Notes under the pieces: generated by a model
What the model was told of the DNA's origin: nothing
Databases searched by the model: none
Seen by the model: only the letters and a program-made list of their open reading frames with translations
Shown here: positions 25,423-42,111 of the stretch, one piece after another
Position numbering within the stretch: position 1 is the stretch's first letter
Layout of the letters: every line of letters starts with the position of its first letter
Position numbers and translations under genes: made by a program
DNA from: an uncultured Actinomycetota bacterium
Lineage (GTDB): Bacteria; Actinomycetota; Actinomycetes; Propionibacteriales; Nocardioidaceae
Reading direction: 5' to 3'
DNA: 64,000 nucleotides
NCBI GenBank assembly: GCA_963784485.1
Contig: CAWARH010000006.1
Span: 580,298-644,297, forward strand

Positions 25423-26613
25423 TCAGCGGAAGGCGGAGTGGCCGGTGAGGGCCTGGCCGAGCACGAGGGTGTGCATCTCGACGGTGCCTTCGTAGGTCAG
25501 GACCGACTCCAGGTTGTTCATGTGCCGGATGACCGGGTACTCCAGGGAGATCCCGTTGGCCCCGAGGATGGTCCGCGAGGTCCGGCAGATCTCCAGCGCC
25601 TCACGGACGTTGTTGAGCTTGCCCAGGCTCACCTGCTCCGGACGCAGCGTCCCCTGGTCCTTGAGCCGGCCCAGGTGCAGGGCGAGCAGGAAGCCCTTGG
25701 ACAGCTCCACGGCCATGTCGGCCAGCTTCTGCTGGGTGAGCTGGAAGCCGCTGAGCGGGCGGCCGAACTGCTCACGGGACCCCGCATAGGACAACGCGGA
25801 CTCGAAGGAGGACCGGGCCGCACCCAGGGCACCCCAGACGATGCCGTAACGGGCCTCGTTCAAGCACGACAACGGCCCCTTGAGCCCCCGCACCTGCGGC
25901 AGCACCGCGGACCCGGGCAGACGCACCCCGTCCAGGACCAGCTCACTGGTCACCGAGGCCCGCAACGAGAGCTTGTGCTTGATCTCGGGGGCGGTGAACC
26001 CGGGCGTCGCGGTCGGCACCACGAACCCGCGGACCCCCTCCTCGGTCTGCGCCCACACCACCGCGACCTGGGCGACCGACCCGTTGGTGATCCACATCTT
26101 CCGCCCGTCCAGGACCCAGTCGTCACCGTCGCGCCGGGCCCGGGTCCGCATCGAGGCCGGGTCCGAGCCCGCATCGGGCTCGGTCAACCCGAAGCACCCG
26201 ATCGCCTCCCCCGCAGCCATCCGCGGCAACCACTCCTGCTTGTGCTCCTCCGAGCCCCACCGCCAGATCGCATACATCGCCAGCGACCCCTGCACCGAGA
26301 CCAGCGACCGGATCCCCGAGTCCACCGCCTCCAGCTCCACACACGCCAACCCGTAGTCGACCGCGCTCATCCCCGCACAGCCGTACCCCTCCAGATGCAT
26401 GCCCAGCACCCCCAACGACCCCAGCTCCTTGGCCAGCCCGGGCAGGTCGTCGATCCGGCCCGCCTCGAACCACCCCGCCACATGCGGCTGGATCCGGCTC
26501 TGCGCCACCTGACGCACCGAGGCCCGCACGTCCCGCTCCTCCCCGGTGAGCAACGAGTCGACCCCGGCCGGGTCCAACGGGTCGAACGGGGGACGCTTGT
26601 CGGTGGTGGTCAT
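25423..26613 (-). CDS. gcdH: glutaryl-CoA dehydrogenase
   Basis: Acyl-CoA dehydrogenase fold with GCDH-type motifs: GLTEPDAGSDPASM, KMWITNG and a C-terminal LTYEGTVEMHTLVLGQALTG. Start ATG 26613 (MTTTDKRPPFDP). Confidence 0.8.
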   Translation of the reverse strand: MTTTDKRPPFDPLDPAGVDSLLTGEERDVRASVRQVAQSRIQPHVAGWFEAGRIDDLPGLAKELGSLGVLGMHLEGYGCAGMSAVDYGLACVELEAVDSGIRSLVSVQGSLAMYAIWRWGSEEHKQEWLPRMAAGEAIGCFGLTEPDAGSDPASMRTRARRDGDDWVLDGRKMWITNGSVAQVAVVWAQTEEGVRGFVVPTATPGFTAPEIKHKLSLRASVTSELVLDGVRLPGSAVLPQVRGLKGPLSCLNEARYGIVWGALGAARSSFESALSYAGSREQFGRPLSGFQLTQQKLADMAVELSKGFLLALHLGRLKDQGTLRPEQVSLGKLNNVREALEICRTSRTILGANGISLEYPVIRHMNNLESVLTYEGTVEMHTLVLGQALTGHSAFR

Positions 26614-26717
26614 CAGTTGCTCCTCAGTCCGCCGGCGGCGGACCTCGTGGTGGCGCTCCCCCAGCAACGGATGCGAGGGCGCGGTGATCGGTGTCCTTCG
26701 ACAGTCGCGCAGCTGCG

Positions 26718-28247
26718 CTAGCGCCTCCGGGAGGCCGCGGAGCCGCCCGTCCTCTCGGCGTGCTCGATGCCGCCGTTGACGCGGCGCGGAACCTGCAGAG
26801 GGTTGTCGCTCTGCGCCTCCGGCGGCAGCCAGGAGTCGTGGGCGGACTGGAAGGCCACCGGCCGCACGAAGCGACCGAGACCCTGGGCACCCACGGAGGT
26901 CGCGGACGGCACCGACGTGGACGGCCACGGCCCACCGTGCTGCTGCGCCCACGTGAAGGCGACACCGGTGGGCCAGCCGTCGACGACGACCCGGCCGACC
27001 TTGCGGCTCAACCGATCGAGAAGGGCGGCGGCCTGGGGGTCGTCGGCGCCACCGGTGATCAGGCTGGCCGCCAGCGCGCCCTGGAGGTTCGCCAGAGCAT
27101 CGTCCAGCTCCTCGTCGCCGTCGTACTCGCAGACGAGGAGGACGGCGCCGAAGCACTCCTCGAGCAGCCTGCTCCCGGGACCGAGCGCGGCCAGGTCCGC
27201 GCGGAGGACGGCGGCAGGGGCCGGCCAGCCCGACGTCGCCGGGTCCAGCATCTCCACGACCTCCGACCCCGCGTCCTGCATCGCGGCGAGTCCGTTGCGG
27301 ACCGACGACGCGATGGACTCGGTCAGCATCGACGGGCTCGGTGCGGCGTCCCGCAAGGCACCGGCGACGGCGGCAGCCGCTCCTACGCCGGCGGGAGCGA
27401 GCAGCAGCCCCGGCTTGGTGCAGAACTGGCCGTGCCCCAGGGTGAAGGAGCCGACGAGGCCGGTCGCCACCGTCCCGAGGTCGCGGGCCCCGGCGCGGGT
27501 CACCACGACCGGGTTGACCGTGCCCATCTCCGCGTAGACAGGGATCACCACGTCGCGCTCGTTGGCCAGCCGCCACAGCGCCAGCCCGGCCGCTTGCGAC
27601 CCGGTGAACGCGACAGCGGAGATCGCAGCCGCGCGGACGAGCTCGACGCCCGCCTGGTGACCGTTGACCATGCCGAACGTGCCGACGGGTGCGCCCGCCT
27701 CGGCGAGCGCCTCCCGCGCGATCTCGGCCTGCAGGTGGCTGAGGCCGACGTGTGCCGGGTGGGCCTTCACCACCACCGGGCACCCGGCTGCGAGAGCTGC
27801 GCCGGTGTCGTTGCCCAGGACGCTGAACGCGAAGGGGAAGTTGCTGGCGCCGAACACGGCCACCGGTCCCAGGGGCCGGTTCACCCGGACGATCCGCGCA
27901 CGGGTGGCGGTGGCCTCGTCGATGGTCACGCCCAGGTAGGAGCCCTCGACGGCCACGTCGCCGTAGAAGCGCAGCTGGTCGGCCGCCCGGGTGACTTCTC
28001 CGGACAGCCGCGCGAGGCCCAAGGCGGTCTCCCGGTCGGCGTGGGCCGCGAGCTCGTCCTGGCGTGCCTCGAGGGCGTCGGCGATCCGGTGGAGCCAGGC
28101 GCGACGCTCGCCAGGAGCAGCCGCTGCGACGGCCGCGGCGGCGCCGGCCGCCAGGTCCACGACCTCGGCGACCCGCTCCGGGGTGGTCTCCTCTGCGGTC
28201 GAGACTGCCTCGCCGGTCCGCGGGTCGTACGACGTCACCGCGCTCAC
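26718..28247 (-). CDS. NAD(P)+ aldehyde dehydrogenase (KGSADH-like subfamily)
   Basis: ALDH catalytic motifs EMGTVNP and GQFCTKPG. GTG 28247 forms a GTGA overlap with the gabT stop. Confidence 0.8.
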   Translation of the reverse strand: MSAVTSYDPRTGEAVSTAEETTPERVAEVVDLAAGAAAAVAAAAPGERRAWLHRIADALEARQDELAAHADRETALGLARLSGEVTRAADQLRFYGDVAVEGSYLGVTIDEATATRARIVRVNRPLGPVAVFGASNFPFAFSVLGNDTGAALAAGCPVVVKAHPAHVGLSHLQAEIAREALAEAGAPVGTFGMVNGHQAGVELVRAAAISAVAFTGSQAAGLALWRLANERDVVIPVYAEMGTVNPVVVTRAGARDLGTVATGLVGSFTLGHGQFCTKPGLLLAPAGVGAAAAVAGALRDAAPSPSMLTESIASSVRNGLAAMQDAGSEVVEMLDPATSGWPAPAAVLRADLAALGPGSRLLEECFGAVLLVCEYDGDEELDDALANLQGALAASLITGGADDPQAAALLDRLSRKVGRVVVDGWPTGVAFTWAQQHGGPWPSTSVPSATSVGAQGLGRFVRPVAFQSAHDSWLPPEAQSDNPLQVPRRVNGGIEHAERTGGSAASRRR

Positions 28248-29578
28248 CGGGCACCTCGCACGGCCGCCTCGAGGACGTCCAGCGCCTCGTCGAGGAGGGG
28301 CAGGGGGATGACCAGCGGCGGGAGCAGCCGGATCACGTTGCCGTAGGTGCCGCAGACAAGGACCAGGACGCCGTCGCGGTGGCACCGGGCGGCGACGGCC
28401 CGGGCGACCTCCGGCGCCGGCTCTCTCGTGCCCGGACCGACGAGCTCGAGCGCGAGCATCGCGCCCCGGCCACGCACCTCGCCGACGGTGGAGCCTGGAC
28501 CGGTCAGCGCATGCAGCCGTGGCATCGCCCGCGCCTCGATGTCGCGGGCCCGCTGCACCAGGTCCTGCCGCTCGATGGTCTCCAGTGCCCCGAGGGCGGC
28601 CGCGCAGGCGACGGGGTTCCCGGCGAAGGTGCCCCCCAGCCCGCCGGGCGCGACGGCGTCCATGAGCTCGGCGCGACCGGTCACGGCTGCAAGCGGCAGG
28701 CCACCGGCCAGCGCCTTCGCGGTGGTGACCAGGTCGGGGACCACCCCCTCGTGCTCGCAGGCGAACATCGCCCCGGTCCTGGCCAGCCCGGTCTGGATCT
28801 CGTCGGCCACGAACACGATCCCGTGCTCGGTGGCGAAGTCCTGGACCGCCCTGAGGTAGCCGGGCGGCGGGACGATGAAGCCGCCTTCGCCCTGGATCGG
28901 CTCGGCCACGATCGCGGCGACGTTGTGAGCGCCGATCTGGGTGACGACCGCGTCCTTCAGGGCCGCGAGGGCCTCGGCACCAGCGTGCTCGGCACCGCTC
29001 GGCCACCGGTAGGGGTACGGCGACGGCACACGGTAGACCTCGGGCGCGAACGGGCCGAAGCCCTCCTTGTAGGGCGCGTTCTTGGCCGTCATCGACATCG
29101 TCAGCAGGGTCCGGCCGTGGTAGGCGTGCCCCAGGACCACCACTGCAGGTCGGCCCGTCGCGGTCCGCGCGATCTTGATGGCGTTCTCGACCGCCTCGGC
29201 CCCGGTCGTGAACAGCGCGGTCTTCTTGGCGTGGGTCCCGGGCGTGAGGCGGTTGAGCGCAGCAGCGACCTCCCCGTACCCCTCGTACTCGGTCACCAGG
29301 AAGCAGGTGTGGGTGAAGCGTTCAGCCTGCTCACGCAGGCGACGGACCACGGCCGGGTCGGAGGCCCCGACACTGGTCACGGCGATGCCCGAGGCGAGGT
29401 CGATGAGGTGGTTGCCGTCGACGTCGACGAGCACCCCACCGCCCGCTCGCTCGATGAAGACGGGCATCGTGGTGCCCAGCCCGCCGGCCACCTCGGCGTC
29501 GCGCTGCTCCTGGAGCTTCAGCGAGGTGGGGCCGGGGATCTCGGTGACGAGAATGCGGCGCTGCTCCGGCTGCGACAT
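28244..29578 (-). CDS. gabT: class-III PLP aminotransferase, 4-aminobutyrate/5-aminovalerate:2-oxoglutarate type
   Basis: Full-length GabT-like sequence (EIPGPTS..., FVADEIQTGLARTG, TTAKALAGGLPL with the PLP lysine). Confidence 0.8.
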   Translation of the reverse strand: MSQPEQRRILVTEIPGPTSLKLQEQRDAEVAGGLGTTMPVFIERAGGGVLVDVDGNHLIDLASGIAVTSVGASDPAVVRRLREQAERFTHTCFLVTEYEGYGEVAAALNRLTPGTHAKKTALFTTGAEAVENAIKIARTATGRPAVVVLGHAYHGRTLLTMSMTAKNAPYKEGFGPFAPEVYRVPSPYPYRWPSGAEHAGAEALAALKDAVVTQIGAHNVAAIVAEPIQGEGGFIVPPPGYLRAVQDFATEHGIVFVADEIQTGLARTGAMFACEHEGVVPDLVTTAKALAGGLPLAAVTGRAELMDAVAPGGLGGTFAGNPVACAAALGALETIERQDLVQRARDIEARAMPRLHALTGPGSTVGEVRGRGAMLALELVGPGTREPAPEVARAVAARCHRDGVLVLVCGTYGNVIRLLPPLVIPLPLLDEALDVLEAAVRGAR

Positions 29579-29706
29579 CGTTCCTCCGTGGGATGTGGGA
29601 AGTCAGACGGTACGCAGGAGGACCGCCTCCGTCTTCGTCGGATCCGACCAACCACCTGCGGTTGTCGTCCGTACGACGAGGAGTCGGCGCGGTCCGGCGC
29701 CCGCGG

Positions 29707-31158
29707 TCAGGCGACTCCCCGGGTCCGCAGGGCCAGCCATGTCTCGGCGGACACGTCAGGGTCGTCGAGGTCGAGCTGGAGCAGCTCTCGGGCTCGGGCC
29801 ACCCGGTAGCGCAGCGTGTTGCGGTGCAGGCCGAGGGAGGTCGCCGCCTGCTCGTACTGACCGCGGTGCCGTAGGTAGCCGACCAGTGCCTGCAGCAGCT
29901 CCGGGCTCGCCCGGGCCACGAACCGGTCGACGGCTCGGGGCACCCCTCCCCCTGGGTGCCGGGGCCGGGCGATCTTCCCCGGAGGGGTCGACGCGAGTGC
30001 CCGCTGGGTGCGGGGCCGGACTCGGCCGGCGGCGTCGAGGGCGACCAGCTCGGAGACCACCGCCGACGCGACGGGGTCGACTCTGCCCAGCTCGGCCTCG
30101 AGGTCGTCGAGTGCTGGATGGCCGTCCGGCAGCAGGCACCAGGCTGCGGCCCGGTCCACCATCACCGACAGCGCCTCTGGGCACCACCGCTCCACCGCCT
30201 CGACGAGGTCGGCGCTGTCGCGGCCCCTGATCGCGAGCACGCTGACCTCCCGGCCCGGGGAAGGCACGCCGGTGTCCGCGGCGAGCCGCCGGCTCGCGTC
30301 CGTCAGGCCCGCGTCGACCAGCAGCGCCACGCACCGTCGCGTCGCCTCCCGGGCGGACTGGCTGCGCTGGTTGCGGATCACGTCGAGGCTGAGCAGCGCC
30401 GCGGCGGTGAGCACGACCCGCCGCTGGGCCGCTTCCAGCTGGCGCGGGGACCCGGCTGCGAGATAGCCGACCACCCGGTTCTCCACCGCGAGCGGGAAGA
30501 CGACGACCACGTGGTCGGCGGAGCTGAACGAGGCAGACGAGTGGACCCCTGCCATTTCCAGCCGGCTCACCTCGGCCTGGAGCGCCTCCATCTCCTCCAC
30601 CAGCCCGGCGGGGTAGCTCTGGTCGACCTTTCCCTGCGCGGTGAGCAGGGCCGCCCAACCCTCGAGAAGCACCGCGAGCCGCCGCAGGACGGCCGCAGCC
30701 GGGTCCGGCGCCACTGCCGCGTCGACCAGCGCCCGGTGCGCCGCGACCGCGTCGGTGAGCTGCTGCTCGGTCGAGCGCGCGCGGGCCGACCAGTAGGTGC
30801 GCGAGACCAGGAGGAACGGGGTGGGGACGGGTACGACGAGCAGGGGCAGCCGCGCCTCGCGACAGGCCCTCACCAGGGACGGGGGCGGCGACTGGTGCAC
30901 GGGACCGAGCCCCAGGGCCAGGGCGCTCAGTCCTGCCTGCCTCAGCCGGGCGACGTACCGGCGACAACCCAGGTCGCTGTGCGGCAGCGTCAGCCCGGTC
31001 GTGAGGAGCAGCTCCCCGCCACTCAGGTAGGCGACCGGGTCGACCAGCTCGCTGATGTGGACCGCGGTGATCTCCGTGTCGGGTGCGGTGAAGCCCTCGG
31101 CCGGCACCAGGTGGTGTCCCAACGCCGAGCACAGGGAGGCGACGGTGGGGATGGACAT
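29707..31158 (-). CDS. PucR-family transcriptional regulator
   Basis: N-terminal PucR/PurC-like domain (ITAVHISELVDPVAYLSGGELLLTTG) and C-terminal HTH (ATSLGLHRNTLRYRVARARELL). Confidence 0.8.
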   Translation of the reverse strand: MSIPTVASLCSALGHHLVPAEGFTAPDTEITAVHISELVDPVAYLSGGELLLTTGLTLPHSDLGCRRYVARLRQAGLSALALGLGPVHQSPPPSLVRACREARLPLLVVPVPTPFLLVSRTYWSARARSTEQQLTDAVAAHRALVDAAVAPDPAAAVLRRLAVLLEGWAALLTAQGKVDQSYPAGLVEEMEALQAEVSRLEMAGVHSSASFSSADHVVVVFPLAVENRVVGYLAAGSPRQLEAAQRRVVLTAAALLSLDVIRNQRSQSAREATRRCVALLVDAGLTDASRRLAADTGVPSPGREVSVLAIRGRDSADLVEAVERWCPEALSVMVDRAAAWCLLPDGHPALDDLEAELGRVDPVASAVVSELVALDAAGRVRPRTQRALASTPPGKIARPRHPGGGVPRAVDRFVARASPELLQALVGYLRHRGQYEQAATSLGLHRNTLRYRVARARELLQLDLDDPDVSAETWLALRTRGVA

Positions 31159-31274
31159 GGCCCCACCCTTCTCGACGCCGTGACCACGGGCGAGCGATCT
31201 CGGTCAGACTACCCAACGACTGCCACGCGGCATCCAAGCGACGGGCCCACGCGACAGGCCCGGGCGACGTGCGC

Positions 31275-32081
31275 TCAGCCGTCCAGGAAGGCCCGGAACA
31301 GCACCTCGCGGTCGGCCCTCGAGCCGTCGTCGTCCTCGGGGTGCCACTGGACCCCGACCAGCCAGTGGTCGGGGTGCTCGATCGCCTCGACGATCCCGTC
31401 CTCGGCGACGGCGGCGACCGTGAAGCCCTCCGCCACGCGGTCCACTGCCTGGTGGTGACCCGAGCGCACCGTCAGCCGGTCGCTGTCGAAGATCGCCCGG
31501 AGGCGGGTCCCGGGAACGAGCGTGACCTTCTCGTCGACGAACATCGGCTGCCCCACGCCGCCCCGGTGCAGCGCGTAGTTCGCGATGTCCGGGATGATCG
31601 AACCGCCCCACGCCACGTTGAGCAGCTGTGCGCCGCGGCAGATCGCGAGGACGGGTCTTGCGGCACCGACGGCCGCCCGGATGGCGGCCATGCCGTCGTC
31701 GTCGGCCCGCCGGTCCACGCCGTAGGAGTGGGGGACGTCGACGTCGTCCCCGCCGTAGCAGGTCGCGGACACGTCGCCTCCTCCGAGGACGAGCAGCCGG
31801 TCGAAGGCCGCGACCTCGGTGGCGTCGGGGAGGGGCTCGGAGGTGTCGAACAGCTCGTACGTCGCCCCGAGACCGACCAGCGTCTGCAGGGCGCAGCGGG
31901 TGAACCTGCGGACCAGGTCCGCCACCGGCGGGGTGAGGTCCGGGAAGTTCAGGGACACGACCACCGCGACCCGCGGTCCGCCGCCGCTGCCGCTGCCCGG
32001 GCCCTCCGGCTCCACCTCGCCGCGGAGCACCACAGGCGCCGGCCCGGACGACACGGCCGGTCCGGGCGAGGAGCCGGTCAC
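31275..32081 (-). CDS. class-I glutamine amidotransferase-like / peptidase C26 gamma-glutamyl hydrolase (PuuD-like), copy 2
   Basis: Catalytic motifs LAICRGAQLLN and VGVQWHPE. GTG 32081 gives a GTGA overlap, but the first ~45 aa are low-complexity, so the start may lie further downstream. Confidence 0.7.
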   Translation of the reverse strand: MTGSSPGPAVSSGPAPVVLRGEVEPEGPGSGSGGGPRVAVVVSLNFPDLTPPVADLVRRFTRCALQTLVGLGATYELFDTSEPLPDATEVAAFDRLLVLGGGDVSATCYGGDDVDVPHSYGVDRRADDDGMAAIRAAVGAARPVLAICRGAQLLNVAWGGSIIPDIANYALHRGGVGQPMFVDEKVTLVPGTRLRAIFDSDRLTVRSGHHQAVDRVAEGFTVAAVAEDGIVEAIEHPDHWLVGVQWHPEDDDGSRADREVLFRAFLDG

Positions 32082-32791
32082 GCTGCCACCCCGCGACGAG
32101 CCAGAGCACGCTCGACCAGGTCGGCGAAGAGCGCCAGGTCGGTCGGGGAGGTGCAGTGCAGGTCCTCGGGATGCCACTGGACCGCCAGGACGTCCGCGCT
32201 GACGTGCTCGGCCGCCTCGATGCACCCGTCGGCGGCCCGGGCGGTGACGCTCAGGCCGTCTCCCAGGCGGTCGACGGCCTGGTGGTGGTAGGACGACACA
32301 GGGATGGTCGTACGCCCCACGATCTCGCGCAGCCTGCTGCCCGGGGCCACGTCCACGTCGTGGATCGACTGCCGGTGGTCCACCCCGGTCGGGCCGAGGT
32401 GCTGGTGCAGGGTGCCACCTAGCGCCACGTTCAGCACCTGCATGCCCCGGCAGATCGCCAGCGTCGGGCGCCCCGTCACGACGACGGCACGGGCCACGGC
32501 GAGGTCCAGGACGTCCTGGTGCTCGACCGCGCGCTCGGTCCGGGGCAGCGGCTCCTGTCCGTAGCGGCGCGGATCGAGGTCGGCTCCACCCGGCAGCAGC
32601 ACGCCGTCGAAGCGACGGAGCCGGTCGGCGAGACCCGCGGTCGGATCGGCTGCCGGACCGTGCAGCACCAGCGGCTCACCGCCGCCCGCCCACACGGCCT
32701 CGCACATCGCCTCGGCGGCGATGGTGCCGCTGAACCGGAGGACGCCGACCTGGGCGGAGCGGCGTCCGATGACGGCGATCAGGGGTCGCAC
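32078..32791 (-). CDS. class-I glutamine amidotransferase-like / peptidase C26 gamma-glutamyl hydrolase (PuuD-like), copy 1
   Basis: LAICRGMQVLN and LAVQWHPE. GTG 32791 is preceded by an aaggag SD. Confidence 0.75.
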   Translation of the reverse strand: MRPLIAVIGRRSAQVGVLRFSGTIAAEAMCEAVWAGGGEPLVLHGPAADPTAGLADRLRRFDGVLLPGGADLDPRRYGQEPLPRTERAVEHQDVLDLAVARAVVVTGRPTLAICRGMQVLNVALGGTLHQHLGPTGVDHRQSIHDVDVAPGSRLREIVGRTTIPVSSYHHQAVDRLGDGLSVTARAADGCIEAAEHVSADVLAVQWHPEDLHCTSPTDLALFADLVERALARRGVAA

Positions 32792-32802
32792 GAGAGGCTC
32801 CT

Positions 32803-33510: not shown

Positions 33511-34892
33511 GGCAGGTCCGCCCAGTAGGTCTGCCGCTCCCAGTCGGTGACGGCGCCGCAGAAGCGCCCCCACTCGTCGGTCTTGTACTCGAGGTAGAGG
33601 TCGGCGAGCTCGGCGCCGAGAGCCTCCTTGAGGTAGGTGTCGTTGTCGAAGGCGGTGATCGCCTCCCCCAAGGTGAGGGGCAACGCGTCGAACTGGTGCT
33701 GCCCCTCGGTGCCGTAGCTCGACCCGACCTGCGGTGCACCGGGGTCGATCTGGTTCTTCAGCCCGTCATCGATGGCCGCGAGGATCACCGCGTGGGTGAG
33801 GTAGGGGTTCACGCTCGCGTCCGGCAGCTTGTACTCCAGCCGGCCGTTGGCCGACAACCTCACCGTGCAGGTCTTGTTGTCGAGCCCCCAGTTGATCTGC
33901 GACGGCGCGAACTGGCCCGCGTCCCAGTAGCGCTTGTACGAGTTGACCGTCGGACCCATGGCGAGCATCGCGCCGGCGGAGTGGGTGAGCAGCCCCCCGA
34001 GCGCATGCTTGCCCTCCTCGCTCAGGTGCAGCTCCCTCGTGCCGGGGGTCTCGAGGATGTTCGCCTCACCGCGCCACAGGCTCCAGTTGTGGTGGCATCC
34101 GTTGCCCATCATGCCGGTGGCCGGCTTGGGCATGAAGCTGGCTTCGATGCCCAGCTCCCGCGCCACCTGCTTGCAGATCTGGCGGTAGACGACGAGACGG
34201 TCGGCTGTGAGCTCTGCCCTGTCGAACATCCAGTTCAGCTCGATCTGGCCAGAGTCCTCGTAGTCGCCCTCGACCATGTCGAGACCGAGCGCCGTGGCGT
34301 AGCGGATCACCCGTTGGAAGATGTCGCGGTTCTTCTCCAGGTGCTCGATGTGGTACGCGGGAGAGGAGTCCGGCCGGAAGACCGCCTGGCGGCCGGGGCC
34401 TTCCCACGTCATCTCCGGCTCGGTGCCGGTGCGGAGCTCGAGGCCGGTGCGCGCGGTGAACTCCGCGTGCATCCGCCTGAAGACGCCCCGGGTGTCGGTG
34501 GCCAGGGCCGTGCCTCCGACACCGGGCACGTGGTCGGGTTCGTAGAGACGGCAGAAGAAGCGGCCCAGCGAGGTGTCCCACGGCAGCACGGAGAACGAGT
34601 CCAGGTCGGGGACGGCGGTGTACTCGGCGGCGTCCGCGCCACCGCCCATCAGGGTGCCGGACCGGTCGGCCTGGAGGTTGGAGATCGCCGTGCGGTGCTG
34701 CTGCACGCCGCGCACGGCCAGCCGGTCGACGTGGGAGGCAGGGGCGACCTTGCCGACGACGCGACCGGTGATGGTCACCGTCTGGTAGTAGATGTTCTCG
34801 ACACCGGACTCCTTGAGGGACTGCTTGACGAGGTCGAGCGCCCCCGCACGGGAGTTCTCCTCCCGGTGCAGGTCGAGATCGGTTGTGCTCAT
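33507..34892 (-). CDS. glutamine synthetase-family gamma-glutamyl ligase (PuuA/GlnA3-4/IpuC-like)
   Basis: GS catalytic-domain motifs FMPKPATGMMGNGCHHNWSLW and NSYKR, in a 461-aa type-I-like architecture. Confidence 0.8.
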   Translation of the reverse strand: MSTTDLDLHREENSRAGALDLVKQSLKESGVENIYYQTVTITGRVVGKVAPASHVDRLAVRGVQQHRTAISNLQADRSGTLMGGGADAAEYTAVPDLDSFSVLPWDTSLGRFFCRLYEPDHVPGVGGTALATDTRGVFRRMHAEFTARTGLELRTGTEPEMTWEGPGRQAVFRPDSSPAYHIEHLEKNRDIFQRVIRYATALGLDMVEGDYEDSGQIELNWMFDRAELTADRLVVYRQICKQVARELGIEASFMPKPATGMMGNGCHHNWSLWRGEANILETPGTRELHLSEEGKHALGGLLTHSAGAMLAMGPTVNSYKRYWDAGQFAPSQINWGLDNKTCTVRLSANGRLEYKLPDASVNPYLTHAVILAAIDDGLKNQIDPGAPQVGSSYGTEGQHQFDALPLTLGEAITAFDNDTYLKEALGAELADLYLEYKTDEWGRFCGAVTDWERQTYWADLP

Positions 34893-34950
34893 CGTCGGTC
34901 ACCTTTCGAGTGGACTGCCCGTGGCGAGGTGCCAGAGTCGGTGGTGCGGG

Positions 34951-36192
34951 TCAGCCGAGGGGGACGAGGCGGCTGAAGGCGTTGCGGAGCTCACGCTGTC
35001 GGGCCGGGTTGAGGTTGACTGCCACCGTGCCCACGTGGTCGCCGACGCGGTGGTAGGTGAGCAGGGCCCCCGCGGCCAGGTCGTCGAGGTCGCCTCCGAC
35101 CAGGCGCACCTCGTCGCCGAGGCCCGGGGAGCCGAAGCTCTGGAGGCGAAGGTCGAGCTGGTCGCTCCAGAAGGACGGGACCGGTGCGAACACCGAGGCG
35201 GGCAGGGTTTCGCCGCGCAGCCGGGCGGTCAGCGTCGCAGCGGCGCGCTTGGCGGTGTCGGTAGGGGTGGACCAGTGCTCGACCCGACGGGGGACGTCGT
35301 CGAGGAGCGGGTTGGGGAACCGCGCGATGTCACCGGCCGCGACCACCCCCGGTGCGCCCACGACCTCGAGGTGGTTGTCACACAGCACCCCGTCGGTGAG
35401 GTCGACCTCGGTGTTGCCGTCGAGCCATTCGCTGTTGCACACCGACCCGACCGACTCCACCACGACGTCGGCCGGGAGCTCGCGGCCGTCGCCGAGGACG
35501 ACACCGCCGACCCGGCCCTCCGGGCCGGCGTCGCCGGTGCCCGTGAAGCCCGTGACGGCGACGTCGACCTCGAAGGTGATGCCTCGGGCAGCGAGGTGGC
35601 GCTGCACGCCGCGCGCGAGCCCGGCACCCAGGACGCGCTCCATGGGGGCGCCGAACGGCTCGACGACCGTGACCGCGCAACCGTGCTTGGTCAGCGTGCA
35701 CGCGGTCTCGACGCCGATGAAGCCCCCGCCGACGACGACGACCCTCTTGCCCGGTTCGAGCTCGCGGCGCAGCGCGACGGCGTCGTCGAGGGTCCGCAGC
35801 ACGAAACGCCCTCGGGCGGGACCGGGCAGCGACAGCCGCCGGGGTCGAAGCCCCGTGGCCACGACGAGGCCGTCGTAGCCGAGGCTCTCTCCGTCGTCGA
35901 GGTGGACCTGTCTGCCCCGGAGGTCGACCCGCGCAGCTCGGCGACGCAGCACGAAGTCGACGTCGTCGACCGAAGGACGACGACGCAGGACCACCATGCC
36001 GTGCAGCCTCGCGAGGTCCGAGTCGCCCGGATCTGCGAGGACCTCCTTGGACAGCGGGGGCCGGTTGTACGGCAGGTGGGGCTCCTCGCCGACGACGGTG
36101 ACCGGGCCGGCGTGTCCTGCGGCCCGCAGCTGCTCGGCAGCACGGAGCCCGGCAAGGGACGCACCGACGACGACCACGCGGGAGGCGGGCAT
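34951..36192 (-). CDS. FAD/NAD(P)H ferredoxin reductase
   Basis: VVVVGASLAGLRAAEQLR and a second Rossmann motif VVVVGGGFIGVE; putidaredoxin-reductase-like. Confidence 0.8.
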   Translation of the reverse strand: MPASRVVVVGASLAGLRAAEQLRAAGHAGPVTVVGEEPHLPYNRPPLSKEVLADPGDSDLARLHGMVVLRRRPSVDDVDFVLRRRAARVDLRGRQVHLDDGESLGYDGLVVATGLRPRRLSLPGPARGRFVLRTLDDAVALRRELEPGKRVVVVGGGFIGVETACTLTKHGCAVTVVEPFGAPMERVLGAGLARGVQRHLAARGITFEVDVAVTGFTGTGDAGPEGRVGGVVLGDGRELPADVVVESVGSVCNSEWLDGNTEVDLTDGVLCDNHLEVVGAPGVVAAGDIARFPNPLLDDVPRRVEHWSTPTDTAKRAAATLTARLRGETLPASVFAPVPSFWSDQLDLRLQSFGSPGLGDEVRLVGGDLDDLAAGALLTYHRVGDHVGTVAVNLNPARQRELRNAFSRLVPLG

Positions 36193-36193
36193 G

Positions 36194-36382
36194 TCAGTCC
36201 TGGAGCTCGATCGCCTGGACAGGGCATACGTCGGCGGCCTCCTCGACCTCGAAGCGCTGCGACTCCTCCGCCTCGGTCTGGTGCTCGAGCTTGCCGTCCT
36301 CGTTGATGCGGAAGACGTCGGGGGCCGCGATGGCGCACTGGCCGTGGTCCTGGCAGCGGGTCCTGTCGACGGTGATGTGCAC
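36194..36382 (-). CDS. small 3Fe-4S-type ferredoxin
   Basis: 62 aa: MHITVDRTRCQDHGQCAIAAPDVF...ADVCPVQAI. One nt separates it from the reductase start. Confidence 0.8.
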   Translation of the reverse strand: MHITVDRTRCQDHGQCAIAAPDVFRINEDGKLEHQTEAEESQRFEVEEAADVCPVQAIELQD

Positions 36383-36457
36383 GTGTGCTCCTCGGATGGT
36401 GTGGCGGGGGTGCTGCGGGCGCCTGCGACGGCTTCGCCGCCCGCGGCAGGATCGGGT

Positions 36458-37660
36458 TCAGTCGCTGAGGTCGAAGGCGACCGGCAGGCTCAGCGGGCCG
36501 GTGTTGCCCGAGTCCGAGAGCCAGGTCGCCTCGCCGCCGAAGCGGACGTGGGGCATCCTCCGGGCAAGCAGGGGCAGTGCCTCGCTCATGTCGCTGCGGG
36601 CCACGAAGTGCCCCAGGCAGTGGTGGGCGCCGCCACCGAAGCCGAAGTGCGGCTTCCGCTCCGCGGTGATGTCGAAGCTCGGCTCACCGAAGGCGCGGGG
36701 GTCGGTTCCCGCGGACTCGCTGTACAGGTGGACGGTGGTGCCCTGCTCGATCGTGAGCCCCTCGAACTCGAAGGTCACCAGTGCCTCGCGGCTCACCCAG
36801 CGCACCGTCGGGTTGACCCGCATCACCTCCTCGACGGCCTTGGCGCCGAGCTCGGGCCTCTCGGCCAGCAGCCTCCACTGGTCGGGGTGCTCGATGAAGG
36901 TCTGCAGGGCGAGGCCGAGCTGGTTGCGCGTGGTGTCGAAGCCCCCGAAGATCAGCAGCACGAGGGCATCACGAAGCTCTCGGTCCGACAACGAGTCATT
37001 GGCCCGGTGCGCCTCGACCAGCCGGGTGACGAAGTCATCCTGGGGACGGGTGTGCCGGTCCTCGATCAGGGCGTCGGCGTAGCTGTACAGCCGTTCGAGA
37101 GCGGCTTCGATCCGCGGGAGGTCACGCTTGAACGTGACACCGAGGGCCAGCCCGATCGTGACCGAGTCGCGTGCGATCACCGGCCACTCGGCCTCGTCGA
37201 TGCCGAGCATGATCGCGATGACGCGCGCGGCGTAGGGCTCGGCGAACTCGCTGACGAACTCGCACCGACCCGGCTCGGCGAAGTTGTCGACGAGCTCGGC
37301 CGCCAGCGCCTGGAAGCGGGGCACCAGCCCGCCGATGAGCTTGGGGGAGAACGCCGGGTTGAGCAGGCGGCGCAGCCGGTGGTGCTCCTCGCCTTCCTTG
37401 TTGAGGATCCAGCTGTCGAACCACTCCGCGAAGGGACCTTCGGTCACGCCGTTGTGGCGGGGCCACGAGACGCTGCCCTGACGCAGCTTCGGGTGCTTGA
37501 GCAGCCTGCTCACCTCGTCGTAGCGGAGGACCGCGATGCCGTAGGTGGTGCGGGCGAACCAGCTCTCCTCGCGCGCAGCCTTCACCACGTCGGAGGTGAT
37601 GGAGAAACCAGGGTCGGCGACGTCGAGCATCGGGGCGTTCATGAGGGCGAGCGTGGACAT
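36458..37660 (-). CDS. cytochrome P450 monooxygenase
   Basis: Heme-thiolate loop FGFGGGAHHCLG, the EXXR motif (EEVMR) and I-helix GGFDTT. Confidence 0.9.
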   Translation of the reverse strand: MSTLALMNAPMLDVADPGFSITSDVVKAAREESWFARTTYGIAVLRYDEVSRLLKHPKLRQGSVSWPRHNGVTEGPFAEWFDSWILNKEGEEHHRLRRLLNPAFSPKLIGGLVPRFQALAAELVDNFAEPGRCEFVSEFAEPYAARVIAIMLGIDEAEWPVIARDSVTIGLALGVTFKRDLPRIEAALERLYSYADALIEDRHTRPQDDFVTRLVEAHRANDSLSDRELRDALVLLIFGGFDTTRNQLGLALQTFIEHPDQWRLLAERPELGAKAVEEVMRVNPTVRWVSREALVTFEFEGLTIEQGTTVHLYSESAGTDPRAFGEPSFDITAERKPHFGFGGGAHHCLGHFVARSDMSEALPLLARRMPHVRFGGEATWLSDSGNTGPLSLPVAFDLSD

Positions 37661-37690
37661 CGGCGACTCCGGAGGGTGGGGGCTTCGCCA

Positions 37691-37720
37691 AATCCTCTAA
37701 CTTTGGAGGATTGAAGTCAA
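37691..37720 (-). promoter_or_regulatory. AT-richer inverted repeat AATCCTC-N8-GAGGATT with a candidate -35 TTGACT just upstream of the P450 gene
   Basis: Inverted-repeat arms at 37691-37697 and 37706-37712. On the minus strand TTGACT (37715-37720) is followed 17 nt later by GAGGAT. The P450 ATG is at 37660 with a ggag SD. Confidence 0.3.
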
Positions 37721-38448
37721 GAGGATGCTCCGGACCGGCTCGCCACCACCCACCCGGTGCCGTCGATCACTTCGCTCACCGTCGTGAACCCGGTGCCGCC
37801 GCTCAGGGGGTGCGTCGGCAACCGGTCGCCGGGGATCCAGCGTGCCGAGTTGCTCATCACGACCTGCCGGTCGGCATTGACCACCACGGTCTCCGTCTCG
37901 ACGCGGTTGAGCACCGGGACCAGCTCCACCTCCATCCGCGTCATCAGCAGGTCCGCCCCTGCCACGCCGACGAACCGGCCCTCGTGGACGACCGGCAGCG
38001 ACAGGGTCATCACGAACTGGTCGGAGCCGGAGTAGTCGACATAGGGGCCGTAGAGGACCGGCCGGCGGTCCGCCTCGGCCTTGGTGTACCAGTCCATGTC
38101 CAGGTAGTCGTAGACGTTGACGTCACCGGCGTCGAAGTTCAGCTTCAGCCGCCTGGTCCCTCGCTCCCCGCGCTGGAACCAGTAGAGGTACCGCTCCCGG
38201 CCTTCGACCACCCCCGGCGCGGCGACGAACCCGTAGCCGAAGGCGGCGTCGGCGCCGTCGAGCCAACCGTGGGCCAGCTCCCCGACCGGCCGCAGCGCGG
38301 CCTCGTGGAGGGTCGCCTCCGCGCCCCGGACACCGGCGAGAGCCTCGCCCACACGGCTCCCCACCAGCTGCAGCCGCTCGAGGTGGTGTGTCACGACCCC
38401 CCTGAGGTGGTCGCGCGCGAGCTCGTGGTTCGTGGGCACGGCCTTCAC
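37717..38448 (-). CDS. soluble Cache-domain protein
   Basis: Cache hallmark PVLYGPYVDYSGSDQFVMTLSLPVVHEGRFVGVAGADLLMTRME. No TM or signal segment. GTGA overlap with the GntR stop. Confidence 0.6.
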   Translation of the reverse strand: MKAVPTNHELARDHLRGVVTHHLERLQLVGSRVGEALAGVRGAEATLHEAALRPVGELAHGWLDGADAAFGYGFVAAPGVVEGRERYLYWFQRGERGTRRLKLNFDAGDVNVYDYLDMDWYTKAEADRRPVLYGPYVDYSGSDQFVMTLSLPVVHEGRFVGVAGADLLMTRMEVELVPVLNRVETETVVVNADRQVVMSNSARWIPGDRLPTHPLSGGTGFTTVSEVIDGTGWVVASRSGASS

Positions 38449-39197
38449 GCGTCCGCCTCCTGACCCGGGCGGTCCACCACCGAGAGGTGGGTGGTGATGA
38501 TCCGTCGGAGGTTGCCGCGGACGTGCCGCTCAGCGGCTCTGCGCGCCCGCTCGCCATCCTCCTCGGCGATGGCGGTCGCGATCTCGTGGTGCTCACGACC
38601 CATCTCGGCGTGCTCGCTGCCGGCAACCGGCTCCAGCCACAGCAGTCCGGCCGTCTCCCCTTGGAGCCGGACCTCGGCCCTGGTCAGGCGCTCGGACTGC
38701 GAGGCCATCGCCACCTCGACATGGAAGCGGCTGTCCGCCTTGAGACGGGATCCTCGGGTGGTGGCCATGCTCATCTGGTCCACCATCGCAAACAACCGGC
38801 GGACCCCGGCGGCATTGCTCCGTTCCGCGGCGAGCCGTGCCGCTGCACCCGAGATCGCGGTCTGCTCGTCGGCGAGGTCGCGAAGCGCCGAGACCGTCAT
38901 CTCGGCGATCCTGCGCCGGTCCGGCCCCTCGGCCGGCTCGACGAACCGACGGACGAACGTGCCGCCGCTGCGACCGCGGCGGGTCTCGACCAGACCCCGT
39001 TCGCGCAGCTCTGCGATGGCGTCCCGCAGGGTCATCGGCGAGACGCCGAGCTGGTGGGCGAAGTCCACCTCGGACGGCAGCTGCTCCCCGTCCGCGAGCA
39101 GGCCGAGGTGGATGGCCTCGGTGAGCCGCAGCAGGATCTCCTCCGCCCGCCCGGCCGAGGCCAGGGGTGCGATCAGCGAGGCGCGTTCGTTGCCCAC
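38445..39197 (-). CDS. GntR-family (FadR/FCD-type) transcriptional regulator
   Basis: wHTH LPSEVDFAHQLGVSPMTLRDAIAELRERGLVETRRGRSGGTFV plus a helical FCD-like C-terminal domain. Confidence 0.8.
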   Translation of the reverse strand: MGNERASLIAPLASAGRAEEILLRLTEAIHLGLLADGEQLPSEVDFAHQLGVSPMTLRDAIAELRERGLVETRRGRSGGTFVRRFVEPAEGPDRRRIAEMTVSALRDLADEQTAISGAAARLAAERSNAAGVRRLFAMVDQMSMATTRGSRLKADSRFHVEVAMASQSERLTRAEVRLQGETAGLLWLEPVAGSEHAEMGREHHEIATAIAEEDGERARRAAERHVRGNLRRIITTHLSVVDRPGQEADA

Positions 39198-39276
39198 GCG
39201 CCCTCCTCTCGGGAACGGTCCAGGGCGGCTCGCCTGCTTCCAGGGGCCGGCCGCAGGGCACTACCCTGCCAGAATC

Positions 39277-39324
39277 CAAGGGGCGTGGACCCCTTGCGCA
39301 CAAAACCTACAACGCTATAGGTTT
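39277..39324. promoter_or_regulatory. two inverted repeats in the GntR/permease divergent region (CAAGGGG-N6-CCCCTTG; AAACCTA-N8-TAGGTTT)
   Basis: 39277-39296 and 39303-39324. The second is an AT-rich island in GC-rich DNA. Confidence 0.35.
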
Positions 39325-39415
39325 CCCGGCGAGGGCATCGCCGATGTCACTGCACACGAGCGGGACCGCGTCGTACGGGGCGCGACCGAGTTCCTCTGCT
39401 TCGAGGAGATCCTCC

Positions 39416-40936
39416 ATGCCAAGCCCAACTCCGTCGGTCGAGGATGACTACCTGCATCACCCCGACGCCGACGCCCACCACCTGAAGTCGCTGGGTTACC
39501 AGTCGGAGTTCAAGAGGGAGATGAGCCCTTGGGCGAACTTCTCGCTCGGCTTCACCTACCTCTCACCGGTCGTGGGGGTCTACAGCCTGTTCGCGATCGC
39601 GCTGATGTCCGGCGGGCCGCCGATGATCTGGAGCTTCGTGATCGTCGGTATCGGCCAGCTGCTCGTGGCGCTGATCTTCAGCGAGGTCGTCGCCCAGTAC
39701 CCGGTCGCGGGCGGGGTCTACCCCTGGGCCCGGCGACTGTGGGGACGCAAGTACGCGTGGATGACCGGGTGGGTCTACATGGTGGCGCTCCTGGTCACGA
39801 TCGCCTCGGTGAGCTACGGCGCCGGCCCCTACGTGGCCGCGGCCTTCGGGTTCCAGAGCAGTGTGAACACCACGATCGCCTGCGCCCTCGGCGTGCTGGC
39901 CATCGCCACGGTCATCAACATGCTGGGCACGAAGGTGCTTGCGATCGTGGCGATCTTCGGTTTCAGCGCTGAGCTGGTCGGCGCCCTCGTCGTGGGAGCG
40001 TGGTTGCTGCTGACGCACCGTGAGCACGGCCTCGGCGTCTTCTTCGACTCCTTCGGCACCGCCGGGGACGGGAACTACCTCTGGGCCTTCGCCGCAGCCG
40101 CCCTGATCGGGGTGTACCAGTACTACGGCTTCGAGGCGTGCGGCGACGTCGCCGAGGAGGTTCCCGACCCGGGCCGCCTGATCCCCAAGGCGATGCGCCG
40201 CACCATCTACATCGGAGGCGCGGCCGCCACCTTCATCGCCCTCTCCCTCACCCTCGCGGTGACCGACATCGGCGCGGTGGTCTCGGGCCAGGACACCGAC
40301 CCGGTCGGCACGTTGCTGACCGATGCCTTCGGCGGGGTGGGCTCGAGGATCGTGCTGATGATCGTCCTGATCTCCTTCGTGTCCTGCGCGATGAGCCTCC
40401 AGGCTGCCGCCAGCCGGCTGGCCTACTCCTACGGACGCGACGACATGATCATCGGCAGCTCCTTGCTCAAGAAGTTCTCGGCCACCCGTCACGTGCCGCC
40501 GTACGCGCTGCTCGTGGCGGCCGTCGTGCCGGCCGTCATCGTGATCGGCTCCAAGATCAGCGAGGACGCCCTCGTCAAGATCATCAGCTTCGCGGCCTTC
40601 GGGATCTACCTGGCCTTCCAGATGGTCGTCCTGGCGGCCCTGCGCGCGCGCCTTCGCGGATGGGTTCCCTCCGGCAAGTACTCGCTGGGCAGGTGGGGAC
40701 TGCCGGTCAACATCGCCGCCCTCGTCTATGGCGTCACCGCGATGGTCAACATGGCGTGGCCGCGCACGCCGGACGTGGCCTGGTACGACAACTGGATCGT
40801 CTGGTTGTCGGCAGCGCTGGTCGTGGGTCTCGGCCTCGTCTACATGGCGGTGCACCGCAGCTACGGCCGCAGCGACGCGCCGTACGACGACGCCATTCCC
40901 AGGCTCTCGCAGGAACGCGCCACCGCCGTCAGGTGA
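39416..40936 (+). CDS. APC-superfamily amino acid/polyamine permease
   Basis: About 12 TM segments, N-terminal LGYQSEFKREMSPWANFSLGFTYLSPV and GGVYPWARR. ATG 39416 is preceded by a gaggag SD. Confidence 0.8.
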   Translation: MPSPTPSVEDDYLHHPDADAHHLKSLGYQSEFKREMSPWANFSLGFTYLSPVVGVYSLFAIALMSGGPPMIWSFVIVGIGQLLVALIFSEVVAQYPVAGGVYPWARRLWGRKYAWMTGWVYMVALLVTIASVSYGAGPYVAAAFGFQSSVNTTIACALGVLAIATVINMLGTKVLAIVAIFGFSAELVGALVVGAWLLLTHREHGLGVFFDSFGTAGDGNYLWAFAAAALIGVYQYYGFEACGDVAEEVPDPGRLIPKAMRRTIYIGGAAATFIALSLTLAVTDIGAVVSGQDTDPVGTLLTDAFGGVGSRIVLMIVLISFVSCAMSLQAAASRLAYSYGRDDMIIGSSLLKKFSATRHVPPYALLVAAVVPAVIVIGSKISEDALVKIISFAAFGIYLAFQMVVLAALRARLRGWVPSGKYSLGRWGLPVNIAALVYGVTAMVNMAWPRTPDVAWYDNWIVWLSAALVVGLGLVYMAVHRSYGRSDAPYDDAIPRLSQERATAVR

Positions 40937-41976: not shown

Positions 41977-42029
41977 GCGATCTCCTTGTTCTGGCGGACT
42001 GCTGCGCGCCGGCACGGAAACGAGAGGGT

Positions 42030-42043
42030 AAGTATTCATATAC
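42030..42043. promoter_or_regulatory. short AT-rich palindrome AGTAT-tcat-ATACT in the BKACE/TetR divergent region
   Basis: Only 5-bp arms, within the AT-rich stretch taagtattcatatactgcacgttcattcat. Confidence 0.25.
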
Positions 42044-42111
42044 TGCACGTTCATTCATAGGATGAGCGCGGGGACCCCGCGTGTCAAGACCTCCCGTGGG
42101 AGCATGGGCGC

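Follow-up and report, generated by a model that had tools for sequence, protein, structure and literature searches.

The breakdown of piperidine, pyrrolidine, and morpholine, which are common natural and industrial amines, is in Actinobacteria, as far as established to our knowledge, attributed to a cytochrome P450 alone. The closest described systems are mycobacterial and comprise the pipR-pipA locus of Mycobacterium smegmatis mc2155, with PipR named in the title of Poupin 1999, and the mor operon morA-morB-morC-orf1' of Mycobacterium sp. HE5/RP1 (Sielaff and Andreesen 2005), both as cited in PMC9477822. According to further citations in the same source, pipA is induced during growth of M. 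smegmatis on piperidine, and recombinant MorA together with its ferredoxin and reductase oxidizes morpholine. Here, we describe a gene cluster in a stretch of 64,000 nt (the window) of contig CAWARH010000006.1, which derives from an uncultured member of the Nocardioidaceae (Actinomycetota). Thirteen consecutive minus-strand genes (25423-39197) and a divergent plus-strand gene for an APC-family permease were all called as real genes. The cluster is not a new arrangement; the pip/mor type to which it belongs is known and partly characterized. With moderate confidence, we read the region as a catabolic island for piperidine, pyrrolidine, and morpholine, which uses a gamma-glutamyl route and is joined to a module leading from 5-aminovalerate to glutaryl-CoA.

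The cytochrome P450 of the window (36458-37660, minus strand) shares 78% identity with MorA of Mycobacterium sp. HE5 (AAV54064.1) and 76% with the P450 of the M. smegmatis pipA locus (BLASTP), which places it in the same family and subfamily by the nomenclature threshold of >55% identity. Its translation contains the heme cysteine motif FGFGGGAHHCLG and matches best to 3p3l/3p3o (E 5e-74) in PDB; the family name is presumably CYP151A. Directly downstream, genes encoding a small single-cluster ferredoxin with the pattern CxxHxxC...CP (36194-36382, minus strand; Fer4_15, E 2.5e-15) and, as in HE5, a FAD/NAD(P)H ferredoxin reductase (34951-36192, minus strand; Pyr_redox_2, E 1.5e-59) are situated, the counterparts of morB and morC. 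They are followed by a gene encoding a glutamine synthetase (GS)-like ligase, predicted as gamma-glutamyl-amide synthetase (33507-34892, minus strand; Gln-synt_C, E 2e-72), and a gene for a PipR-like GntR/FCD transcriptional regulator (38445-39197, minus strand; GntR and FCD domains) lies upstream of the P450 gene, in the order found in M. smegmatis. The sequence-only reading of this DNA had likened the order P450, ferredoxin, reductase, and GS-like ligase to the mor operons and had proposed a comparison of the P450 with MorA and PipA. Both suggestions proved sound: the order is that of the mor operon and recurs in loci with a P450 identical to MorA of HE5, and the identities given above are those of close orthologues.

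The DNA around these two reference P450 genes discloses a gene content that lay beyond the reach of the early cloning work. In M. smegmatis, the locus reads ALDH(-) APC(-) / GntR-Cache-P450-Fdx-GS-SBP-C26-C26-PucR / CoA-transferase(-) ALDH(-) GcdH(-) GabT(-), with ALDH denoting aldehyde dehydrogenase, Fdx ferredoxin, SBP a substrate-binding-protein fold, C26 a hydrolase of the peptidase C26 type, GcdH glutaryl-CoA dehydrogenase, and GabT a transaminase. Loci with a P450 identical to that of HE5 read ALDH(-) APC(-) / GntR-Cache-P450-Fdx-FdR-GS-SBP-C26...PucR, in which FdR is the ferredoxin reductase. For eleven genes of the window, the pip locus of M. smegmatis holds a counterpart, and the order is near-identical (pairwise BLASTP). 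Both loci contain the permease and the series from GntR to PucR, apart from the reductase, and in addition GabT, GcdH, and ALDH. Except for PucR with 31%, the encoded proteins are 44-78% identical to their 10 counterparts, e.g., 78% for the permease, 69% for the GS-like ligase, 60% for the ferredoxin, and 54% for the GntR/FCD regulator. Due to the P450 identity and the shared gene order we conclude that the window carries an orthologue of the pip/mor locus.

There are also differences between these loci. The M. smegmatis pip locus lacks the ferredoxin reductase, which in the window is 58-59% identical to the reductase of the loci with the HE5-MorA-identical P450. Conversely, M. smegmatis possesses a family III CoA-transferase and two canonical ALDHs, neither of which occurs in the window, whose ALDH is of another type and only approximately 31% identical to those of M. 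smegmatis. The gabT-gcdH module is encoded on the opposite strand in M. smegmatis, but on the strand of the core in the window. The HE5 mor region resembles the window in the GntR, Cache, and divergent permease genes upstream and in the SBP and C26 genes downstream of P450-Fdx-FdR-GS, whereas the contigs with the HE5-MorA-identical P450 carry transposases on their flanks and a truncated SBP gene; a gabT/gcdH module does not lie within reach.

Scanning genomes with the GS-like protein identified 80 loci (66-75% identity) in Nocardioides, Intrasporangium, Humibacillus, Microtetraspora, Streptomyces, Actinomadura, Nonomuraea, Millisia, and many Mycolicibacterium. Since almost all of the 80 loci, from various actinobacterial genera, show the same gene order, the cluster is not a product of chance. 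Genes were counted in the 62 loci of at least 20 kb, on which the window proteins were mapped by tblastn, with linkage of the downstream module defined as a location within 10 kb. The core APC / GntR-Cache-P450-(Fdx-FdR)-GS-like-SBP-C26-C26 is near-invariant in these 62 loci. The SBP gene is present in all 62, the P450, Cache, and GntR genes in 61 each, and the divergent APC gene in 60, followed by C26b (56), C26a (55), ferredoxin (46), and FdR (33). GcdH was found in 31/62 loci, the family III CoA-transferase in 25/62, and GabT in 23/62. Thus the P450 almost never occurs without the GS-like ligase, the cytoplasmic SBP, two C26 hydrolases, and the Cache/GntR pair. The sequence-only reading had regarded the SBP and Cache genes as an extra, uncharacterized extension; due to their presence in 62/62 and 61/62 loci, M. 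smegmatis included, they are core components and standard in pip/mor loci.

The GS-like ligase matches best to the gamma-glutamylmethylamide synthetases 7cql and 9qur (E 1e-55) in PDB. As regards a grouping with PuuA, TdnQ, NpaA1, and IpuC, the PDB scores place it nearer to these two synthetases than to 8wwu (E 1e-25), which we take to be NpaA1, or to PA5508 (4hpp, E 2e-18). It stays below the NCBIfam cutoffs of TIGR03105 (294 versus 470 bits) and of the PuuA family NF045547 (199 versus 650 bits). In an alignment of 85 orthologues with GlnA and PuuA of E. coli, the metal, ATP, and glutamate residues E129, E131, E220, H269, E357, R321, and R344 are kept in 85/85, while the ammonium-site residues are lost in 85/85, with D50 replaced by G or A, S53 deleted, and the flap residue E327 replaced by F. 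PuuA has G, a gap, and Y at these positions. Retention of the catalytic core combined with loss of the ammonium-site residues is also the pattern expected of the glutamyl-organic-amine synthetases (GoaS) of PMC11335346, GS-like enzymes which do not fix ammonia. The loss of D50, S53, and E327 fits an amine ligase, and the replacement of E327 by Phe points to a hydrophobic amine pocket. The possibility that the ligase makes only glutamine, which would have spoken against the proposed pathway, is thus very improbable as judged in silico.

The SBP gene (32803-33510, minus strand; SBP_bac_3) starts within the GS stop (overlap at 33507-33510) and encodes a predicted cytoplasmic protein of 235 aa (232-243 aa in the orthologues) with a type II periplasmic-binding-protein fold, in which no signal peptide and no lipobox were found. 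An invariant Cys12 was considered as lipobox cysteine and dismissed, since a hydrophobic leader is missing, the start overlaps the GS stop, and the residue lies in the first beta-strand. The AlphaFold2 (AF2) model (predicted local distance difference test score, pLDDT, of 91.4) matches closed amino-acid-binding proteins in Foldseek, among them SocA (template modelling score 0.87) and AncQR. Compared to GlnH of E. coli, 82-84 of 85 orthologues keep R75, G68, and D157, the residues holding the alpha-carboxylate and alpha-ammonium groups, but the contacts to the glutamine side chain are altered (D10 to L/I, K115 to I, and H156 to D). With a mean column identity of 63% the family is unusually conserved. 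Kept anchor residues and altered side-chain contacts suggest that the protein binds an alpha-amino acid with a changed distal end, and a gamma-glutamyl amide would fit as ligand.

Both C26 genes, C26a (32078-32791, minus strand; Peptidase_C26, E 5e-52) and C26b (31275-32033, minus strand; Peptidase_C26, E 1e-39), encode class I glutamine amidotransferase (GATase)-type gamma-glutamyl amidohydrolases. The Cys-His-Glu triad is present in 72-73 of 73 orthologues of C26a and in 74/74 of C26b; in terms of E. coli PuuD, C114, H222, and E224 are kept in both paralogues and in essentially all orthologues. The idea that one of the paralogues is catalytically dead was rejected due to these intact triads. 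In the literature searched, no tested role was found for the GS-like ligase, the cytoplasmic SBP, or the two C26 hydrolases of this cluster. A paralogous pair of SBP (approximately 48%) and C26 (approximately 50%) genes is located upstream of the main cluster in Mycolicibacterium chlorophenolicum and in L083, a locus with the HE5-MorA-identical P450 (scan loci L015, L016, and L083), which hints that SBP and C26 hydrolase work as a unit.

Two pathways outside this group offer themselves for comparison, the Puu putrescine pathway of E. coli and the amine pathways of Pseudomonas. The sequence-only reading had called the cluster Puu-like. The analogous set of roles stands, since a ligase, an ALDH, a C26 hydrolase, a transaminase, a permease, and a regulator occur in both, even though the Puu regulator is of another family than that of the window. 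Membership in the Puu pathway did not hold; the resemblance does not go beyond the superfamily level. In a direct comparison with the puu proteins of E. coli K-12 (BLASTP), identities are 26% for PuuA and the GS-like ligase, 31% for PuuD and C26a, 32% (142 aa) for PuuD and C26b, 29% for PuuC and the ALDH, and 24% for PuuP and the permease, with PuuE and GabT as exception (44%). All Puu equivalogs remain far below their cutoffs (NF008471 with 75 and 56 versus 266 bits, NF007352 with 64 versus 850 bits). PuuA-, PuuC-, and PuuD-type enzymes in the strict sense are thus not present; the C26 fold and its triad are. For PuuB of E. coli, none of the 18 proteins called at 24.6-44.2 kb gave a BLASTP match. 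A Puu-like mode of action is thus possible without membership, and it is plausible that the P450 takes the place of PuuB and acts on a gamma-glutamyl amide.

The Pseudomonas ipu (isopropylamine) and pip (piperidine) systems follow a logic similar to that of the window, with a ligase, a P450 acting on the gamma-glutamyl amide, and a gamma-glutamyl hydrolase; the likeness is one of description, and they are proteobacterial whereas the window is actinobacterial. In the ipu pathway, glutamylation reportedly precedes the P450 step, and we know of no cytoplasmic SBP-fold or Cache partner described for ipu or pip. The isopropylamine pathway ipu was reported by de Azevedo Wasch 2002, as cited in PMC11335346.

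Taken together with the residue patterns, the following route is conceivable. The APC permease would import the amine, and the GS-like ligase would join it at the expense of ATP to glutamate, as suggested by the loss of the ammonium site and by the ipu pathway. The resulting gamma-glutamyl amide would have lost the charge of the amine and gained a binding handle. The P450, whose orthology is clear and whose substrate is presumed, would then hydroxylate, with ferredoxin and reductase, the ring carbon alpha to the nitrogen. The N-acyl carbinolamide would open to gamma-glutamyl-5-aminopentanal, and an aldehyde dehydrogenase would convert this to gamma-glutamyl-5-aminovalerate. Since the dedicated ALDH of many relatives is missing here, either the ALDH of the downstream module or an enzyme encoded elsewhere would have to serve in this step. 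A C26 hydrolase with its intact triad would presumably release glutamate and 5-aminovalerate, the latter being passed via GabT, ALDH, and GcdH to glutarate semialdehyde, glutarate, glutaryl-CoA, and crotonyl-CoA, with a glutarate CoA-transferase supplied from elsewhere in the genome. The SBP, whose gene invariably follows that of the ligase, probably binds an intermediate by its glutamyl moiety and could act as carrier or specificity subunit, or else as an enzyme. Under this gamma-glutamyl route the two C26 paralogues may divide their work, e.g., into product release and proofreading of the gamma-glutamyl amide pool.

That glutamylation comes before the P450 step is, in our estimation, somewhat better than an even guess. 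It is favoured because of the order of the ipu pathway, the chemistry of the amide, and the hydrophobic replacements in ligase and SBP. As a P450 substrate, a small cation is inferior to a neutral amide with a handle, and small protonated amines are generally poor substrates of these enzymes. The reverse order is the lesser but still a real possibility. The P450 would act on the free cyclic amine and yield 5-aminopentanal or 4-aminobutanal, and the ligase would then glutamylate the amino-aldehyde and block its re-cyclizing, followed by ALDH and C26 hydrolase. Prevention of re-cyclizing to the imine is the usual rationale for glutamylation in Puu, gene content and synteny fit this order equally well, and a Cache sensor implies the presence of free amine in the cytoplasm. 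Against the reverse order, the side-chain positions of the SBP are hydrophobic (L/I and I) and would accommodate a ring-bearing amide more readily than a polar aldehyde or acid, and E327 to Phe in the ligase indicates a hydrophobic amine pocket, but none of the arguments against it is decisive.

Several points weigh against the gamma-glutamyl route as we prefer it. As cited in PMC9477822, MorA, MorB, and MorC of HE5 were reported to oxidize free morpholine in vitro, which speaks for the reverse order, with glutamylation perhaps not the first step. As precedents, ipu and pip are backed by one secondary citation (in PMC11335346). The GS-like ligase reaches no curated family cutoff, and the roles given to the SBP and to the two C26 paralogues are guesses. 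Moreover, without a glutarate CoA-transferase and a second ALDH in the window the pathway is not self-contained. In full-text literature searches, no paper on gamma-glutamylpiperidide, CYP151, pipA/morA biochemistry, or the cluster of Gordonia sp. KTR9 (see below) was found; they retrieved the secondary citations in PMC9477822 and PMC11335346 and the Cache paper PMC10589655.

The module assumed to take over 5-aminovalerate consists of three genes. GabT (28244-29578, minus strand), an omega-amino-acid:2-oxoglutarate transaminase, exceeds the cutoff of NF004714 (702 versus 639 bits) and is predicted to convert 5-aminovalerate or gamma-aminobutyrate (GABA) to the semialdehyde. The ALDH (26718-28247, minus strand) is of the V. 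harveyi/alpha-ketoglutarate-semialdehyde dehydrogenase (KGSADH) type, with PDB matches to 1eyy (E 5e-89) and 3v4c (E 1e-79); its best NCBIfam families are 2,5-dioxovalerate and KGSA dehydrogenases, all below cutoff. It is neither of the PuuC type, as had been assumed from the sequence, nor of the GabD type, and is predicted as glutarate (or succinate) semialdehyde dehydrogenase. GcdH (25423-26613, minus strand) matches over its full length to the glutaryl-CoA dehydrogenases 3sf6 (E 2e-183), 3swo (E 1e-177), and human GCDH (1sir, E 2e-115), whereas generic acyl-CoA dehydrogenases reach only 1e-66 or weaker.

In two of the closest syntenic relatives, Nocardioides daeguensis (locus L011 of our scan) and a Marmoricola metagenome-assembled genome (L014), which share the gene order of the window, GabT is approximately 80% identical and the PucR genes at the same position encode proteins with 65% and 56% identity, respectively. 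In the Nocardioidaceae relatives, the KGSADH-type ALDH gene always adjoins CoA-transferase-GcdH, and a CoA_transf_3 gene is located between ALDH and GcdH in L011, L014, L025, L006, L008, L020, L029, L040, and L066. In the window this interval (26614-26717) comprises 104 nt only, and no homologue of the family III CoA-transferase was found anywhere in the 64 kb. An overlooked CoA-transferase gene between ALDH and GcdH can thus be dismissed, and its absence from the lineage of the window is a clean one. Similarly, a canonical ALDH gene, which in many relatives is situated beside the permease gene or after the C26 genes, is missing. Within the window, the incompleteness stated by the sequence-only reading, i.e., no glutarate CoA-transferase and a single ALDH, was therefore confirmed.

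The proposed C5 route from piperidine via 5-aminovalerate to glutaryl-CoA gained support, given that GcdH is linked to the core in 31/62 loci and that M. smegmatis has GabT, GcdH, ALDH, and the CoA-transferase. It is conceivable that two adjacent but unrelated modules are involved, namely a P450 operon for cyclic amines or xenobiotics, from GntR to C26b, and a PucR-GabT-ALDH-GcdH module of general use in the catabolism of GABA, lysine, or 5-aminovalerate, with no hand-over between them. The gaps of 116 and 128 nt and the separate PucR suggest separate transcription units, PucR is only 31% identical to that of M. smegmatis, GcdH is missing from the surrounding 10 kb in half of the relatives, and the module changes in position and strand from locus to locus. 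On the other hand, a linkage in 31/62 loci, in at least four arrangements and in several actinobacterial genera, is far above the expectation for unrelated genes. The expected ring-opening product of piperidine is moreover the exact substrate of the GabT-ALDH-GcdH module. We therefore regard two unrelated modules as improbable. In about half of the genomes, the core is accompanied by linked gabT/ALDH/gcdH genes, whose varying positions and orientations are the mark of a functional rather than a historical linkage. The possibility that the GS/P450 and gabT-ALDH-gcdH blocks are never linked in relatives, named beforehand as fatal to the proposal, did not materialize.

For the joint pathway from cyclic amine to glutaryl-CoA, the nature of the amine has to be considered as well. 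A linear biogenic amine or polyamine as substrate, such as cadaverine, putrescine, an alkylamine, or an amino alcohol, would be treated in the manner of Puu or Ipu, with the P450 deaminating or hydroxylating the gamma-glutamyl derivative. The nearest solved relatives of the ligase use methylamine, the Cache fold resembles that of sensors for GABA, ethanolamine, putrescine, and histamine, and GcdH would fit cadaverine, too. However, the P450 is 76-78% identical to P450s involved in N-heterocycle hydroxylation according to PMC9477822, and neither an amine oxidase nor a second transaminase for a diamine is present. A linear substrate is thus very improbable.

The Cache gene (37717-38448, minus strand; dCache_1, MCP-like_PDC_1) encodes a stand-alone soluble double-Cache protein without transmembrane helix (AF2 model with pLDDT 91.9). 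Its Foldseek neighbours are the ligand-binding domains of PctD (choline), PctC (GABA), CqsR (ethanolamine), McpU (putrescine), and TlpQ (histamine). Among 34 family members, the residues Y113, W120, and D166, which correspond to the aromatic and Asp positions holding the amino group, are invariant, and an invariant Met occupies the place of the Arg that contacts the carboxylate in amino-acid sensors. Stand-alone intracellular dCache_1AM proteins in two-gene operons with GntR/FCD regulators were predicted as amine sensors of Actinobacteria in the relevant passages of PMC10589655. The pair in the window agrees with this class in a stand-alone dCache_1 protein without transmembrane helix, an operon with GntR/FCD, translational coupling by a 4-nt overlap, and an actinobacterial host. 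With regard to the published AM motif, the comparison covers the conserved aromatic pair W120/Y121 and D166, which are present, and the carboxylate-binding Arg, which is replaced by the invariant Met. The same passages of PMC10589655 draw no link between the dCache-GntR pair and the pip/mor P450 cluster. The Cache protein is predicted to be an intracellular amine sensor acting with the GntR regulator; the class as such is already known, while its systematic place at the head of pip/mor clusters seems to be new.

The region between the GntR and permease genes (218 nt) contains the perfect palindrome AAACCTACAACGCTATAGGTTT at 39303-39324. The pattern AAACCTA-N8-TAGGTTT occurs only here in the window, with 0.02 sites expected by chance. 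The exact palindrome was sought and not found in the relatives, but a related AT-rich imperfect palindrome with the consensus about AAAAACTACAgtcCTATTGTTTA occurs at the same position in most of 78 relatives, a conserved motif which emerged from AT-richness only. We infer a candidate operator of the PipR-like regulator. In this scenario the Cache protein would bind free amine in the cytoplasm and relieve or modulate the GntR/FCD regulator at this site, which would switch on the permease gene and the operon from GntR to C26b. In one of two M. smegmatis genomes, the Cache gene is separated from pipA by an insertion of approximately 2.2 kb (an ISL3-family transposase and a PRiA4_ORF3 gene), which lengthens the Cache product from 238 to 289 aa and could affect pipA regulation.

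The notion that the described P450-on-free-amine picture of pip and mor is incomplete, and has to be extended by a gamma-glutamyl route, an SBP as carrier or specificity subunit, a contact between dCache protein and GntR regulator, and distinct tasks of the two C26 hydrolases, is tentative as a whole and rather a suggestion than an expectation. It is testable, and would mean that the accepted P450-only scheme for the cleavage of cyclic amines may be incomplete. Since the genetically tractable M. smegmatis has the same gene set, the gamma-glutamyl hypothesis is open to direct tests there, as are the tasks assigned to the two repurposed folds.

Some relatives of the cluster show aberrant compositions. 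A second copy in M. chlorophenolicum (L041, 6226-21385) was considered as a variant with another oxidation module, but turned out to be a decayed copy. It keeps only the C-terminal half of the permease, has lost GntR, Cache, and P450 by deletion, and retains Fdx-GS-SBP-C26-C26-PucR as well as CoA-transferase/ALDH/GcdH/GabT. A flavin amine oxidase and a luciferase-like monooxygenase are encoded just upstream of the remnant.

On plasmid pGKT2 of Gordonia sp. KTR9, genes for GntR/FCD, Cache, P450 (70%), and the GS-like ligase (70%, residues 1-390) occur in the same order as in the window (10482-17493). Unlike in the window, SBP, C26, and the downstream genes are missing. The GS-like gene, which is unannotated in the PLSDB table, breaks off at residue 390, directly beside a gene annotated as FAD-dependent oxidoreductase, and a second gene annotated as cytochrome P450 follows. 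We take the latter two genes to be xplB and xplA of RDX degradation. The region appears to be a truncated derivative of this cluster type, and the xpl region looks like an insertion into a pip/mor-type cluster.

In the alphaproteobacterial Ruegeria sp. SCSIO 43209, a plasmid region (9328-18965) contains an Lrp regulator gene, a gene for a P450 57% identical to that of the window, and two GS-like genes (one 41%), together with genes for an ABC transporter, a class I glutamine amidotransferase, and a 2Fe-2S ferredoxin (tblastn search of plasmids). The partnership of P450, ligase, and amidohydrolase thus crosses phyla, which argues that all three act on one pathway.

Due to the high G+C content of the window (approximately 72%), mechanical lists of open reading frames (ORFs) are full of artefacts. 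Genes were therefore called from the frame bias of G+C at third codon positions (GC3), and products were assigned by sequence searches against Pfam, NCBIfam, and PDB. All 14 genes of the sequence-only reading were recovered with their strands and domains. An exception concerns the start of the permease gene (39416-40936, plus strand; AA_permease_2, E 6.5e-43), which had been placed at 39167. A start at 39416, picked by GC3 score, is more likely and gives a product of 506 aa, compared to 498 aa for the M. smegmatis orthologue. The product belongs to the APC-family amine/amino-acid permeases and probably takes up the amine substrate.

Overlaps of 4 nt couple the gene pairs GntR/Cache, GS/SBP, and GabT/ALDH. 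Intergenic gaps of 116 nt (C26b-PucR), 128 nt (PucR-GabT), and 104 nt (ALDH-GcdH) indicate that at least three transcription units are likely. Thus, the chain of 13 minus-strand genes on one strand holds, but its reading as a single unit does not. The PucR-family regulator (29707-31158, minus strand; PucR and HTH_30) probably controls the downstream gabT-ALDH-gcdH unit. A scan for sigma-70 promoters yielded none and terminators were found at chance level, such a scan being uninformative for DNA of so high a G+C content. Rfam gave no match in the window.

Beside the permease gene, at 41029-44170, genes encoding a beta-keto-acid cleavage enzyme (BKACE/DUF849), a TetR regulator, and an alpha/beta-hydrolase-OsmC fusion (436 aa) are located, none of which is conserved next to the cluster in the relatives. 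Further away, the region 14774-22889 contains genes for a 1404-aa BTAD-nSTAND NTPase-WD40 protein (minus strand) and a 925-aa MalT/LuxR-type regulator (plus strand), with a short GntR-domain ORF (19159-19506) between them. At 58000-62000, the G+C content drops to approximately 66% and coding-potential scores of the ORFs are weak; this part may be foreign or non-coding.

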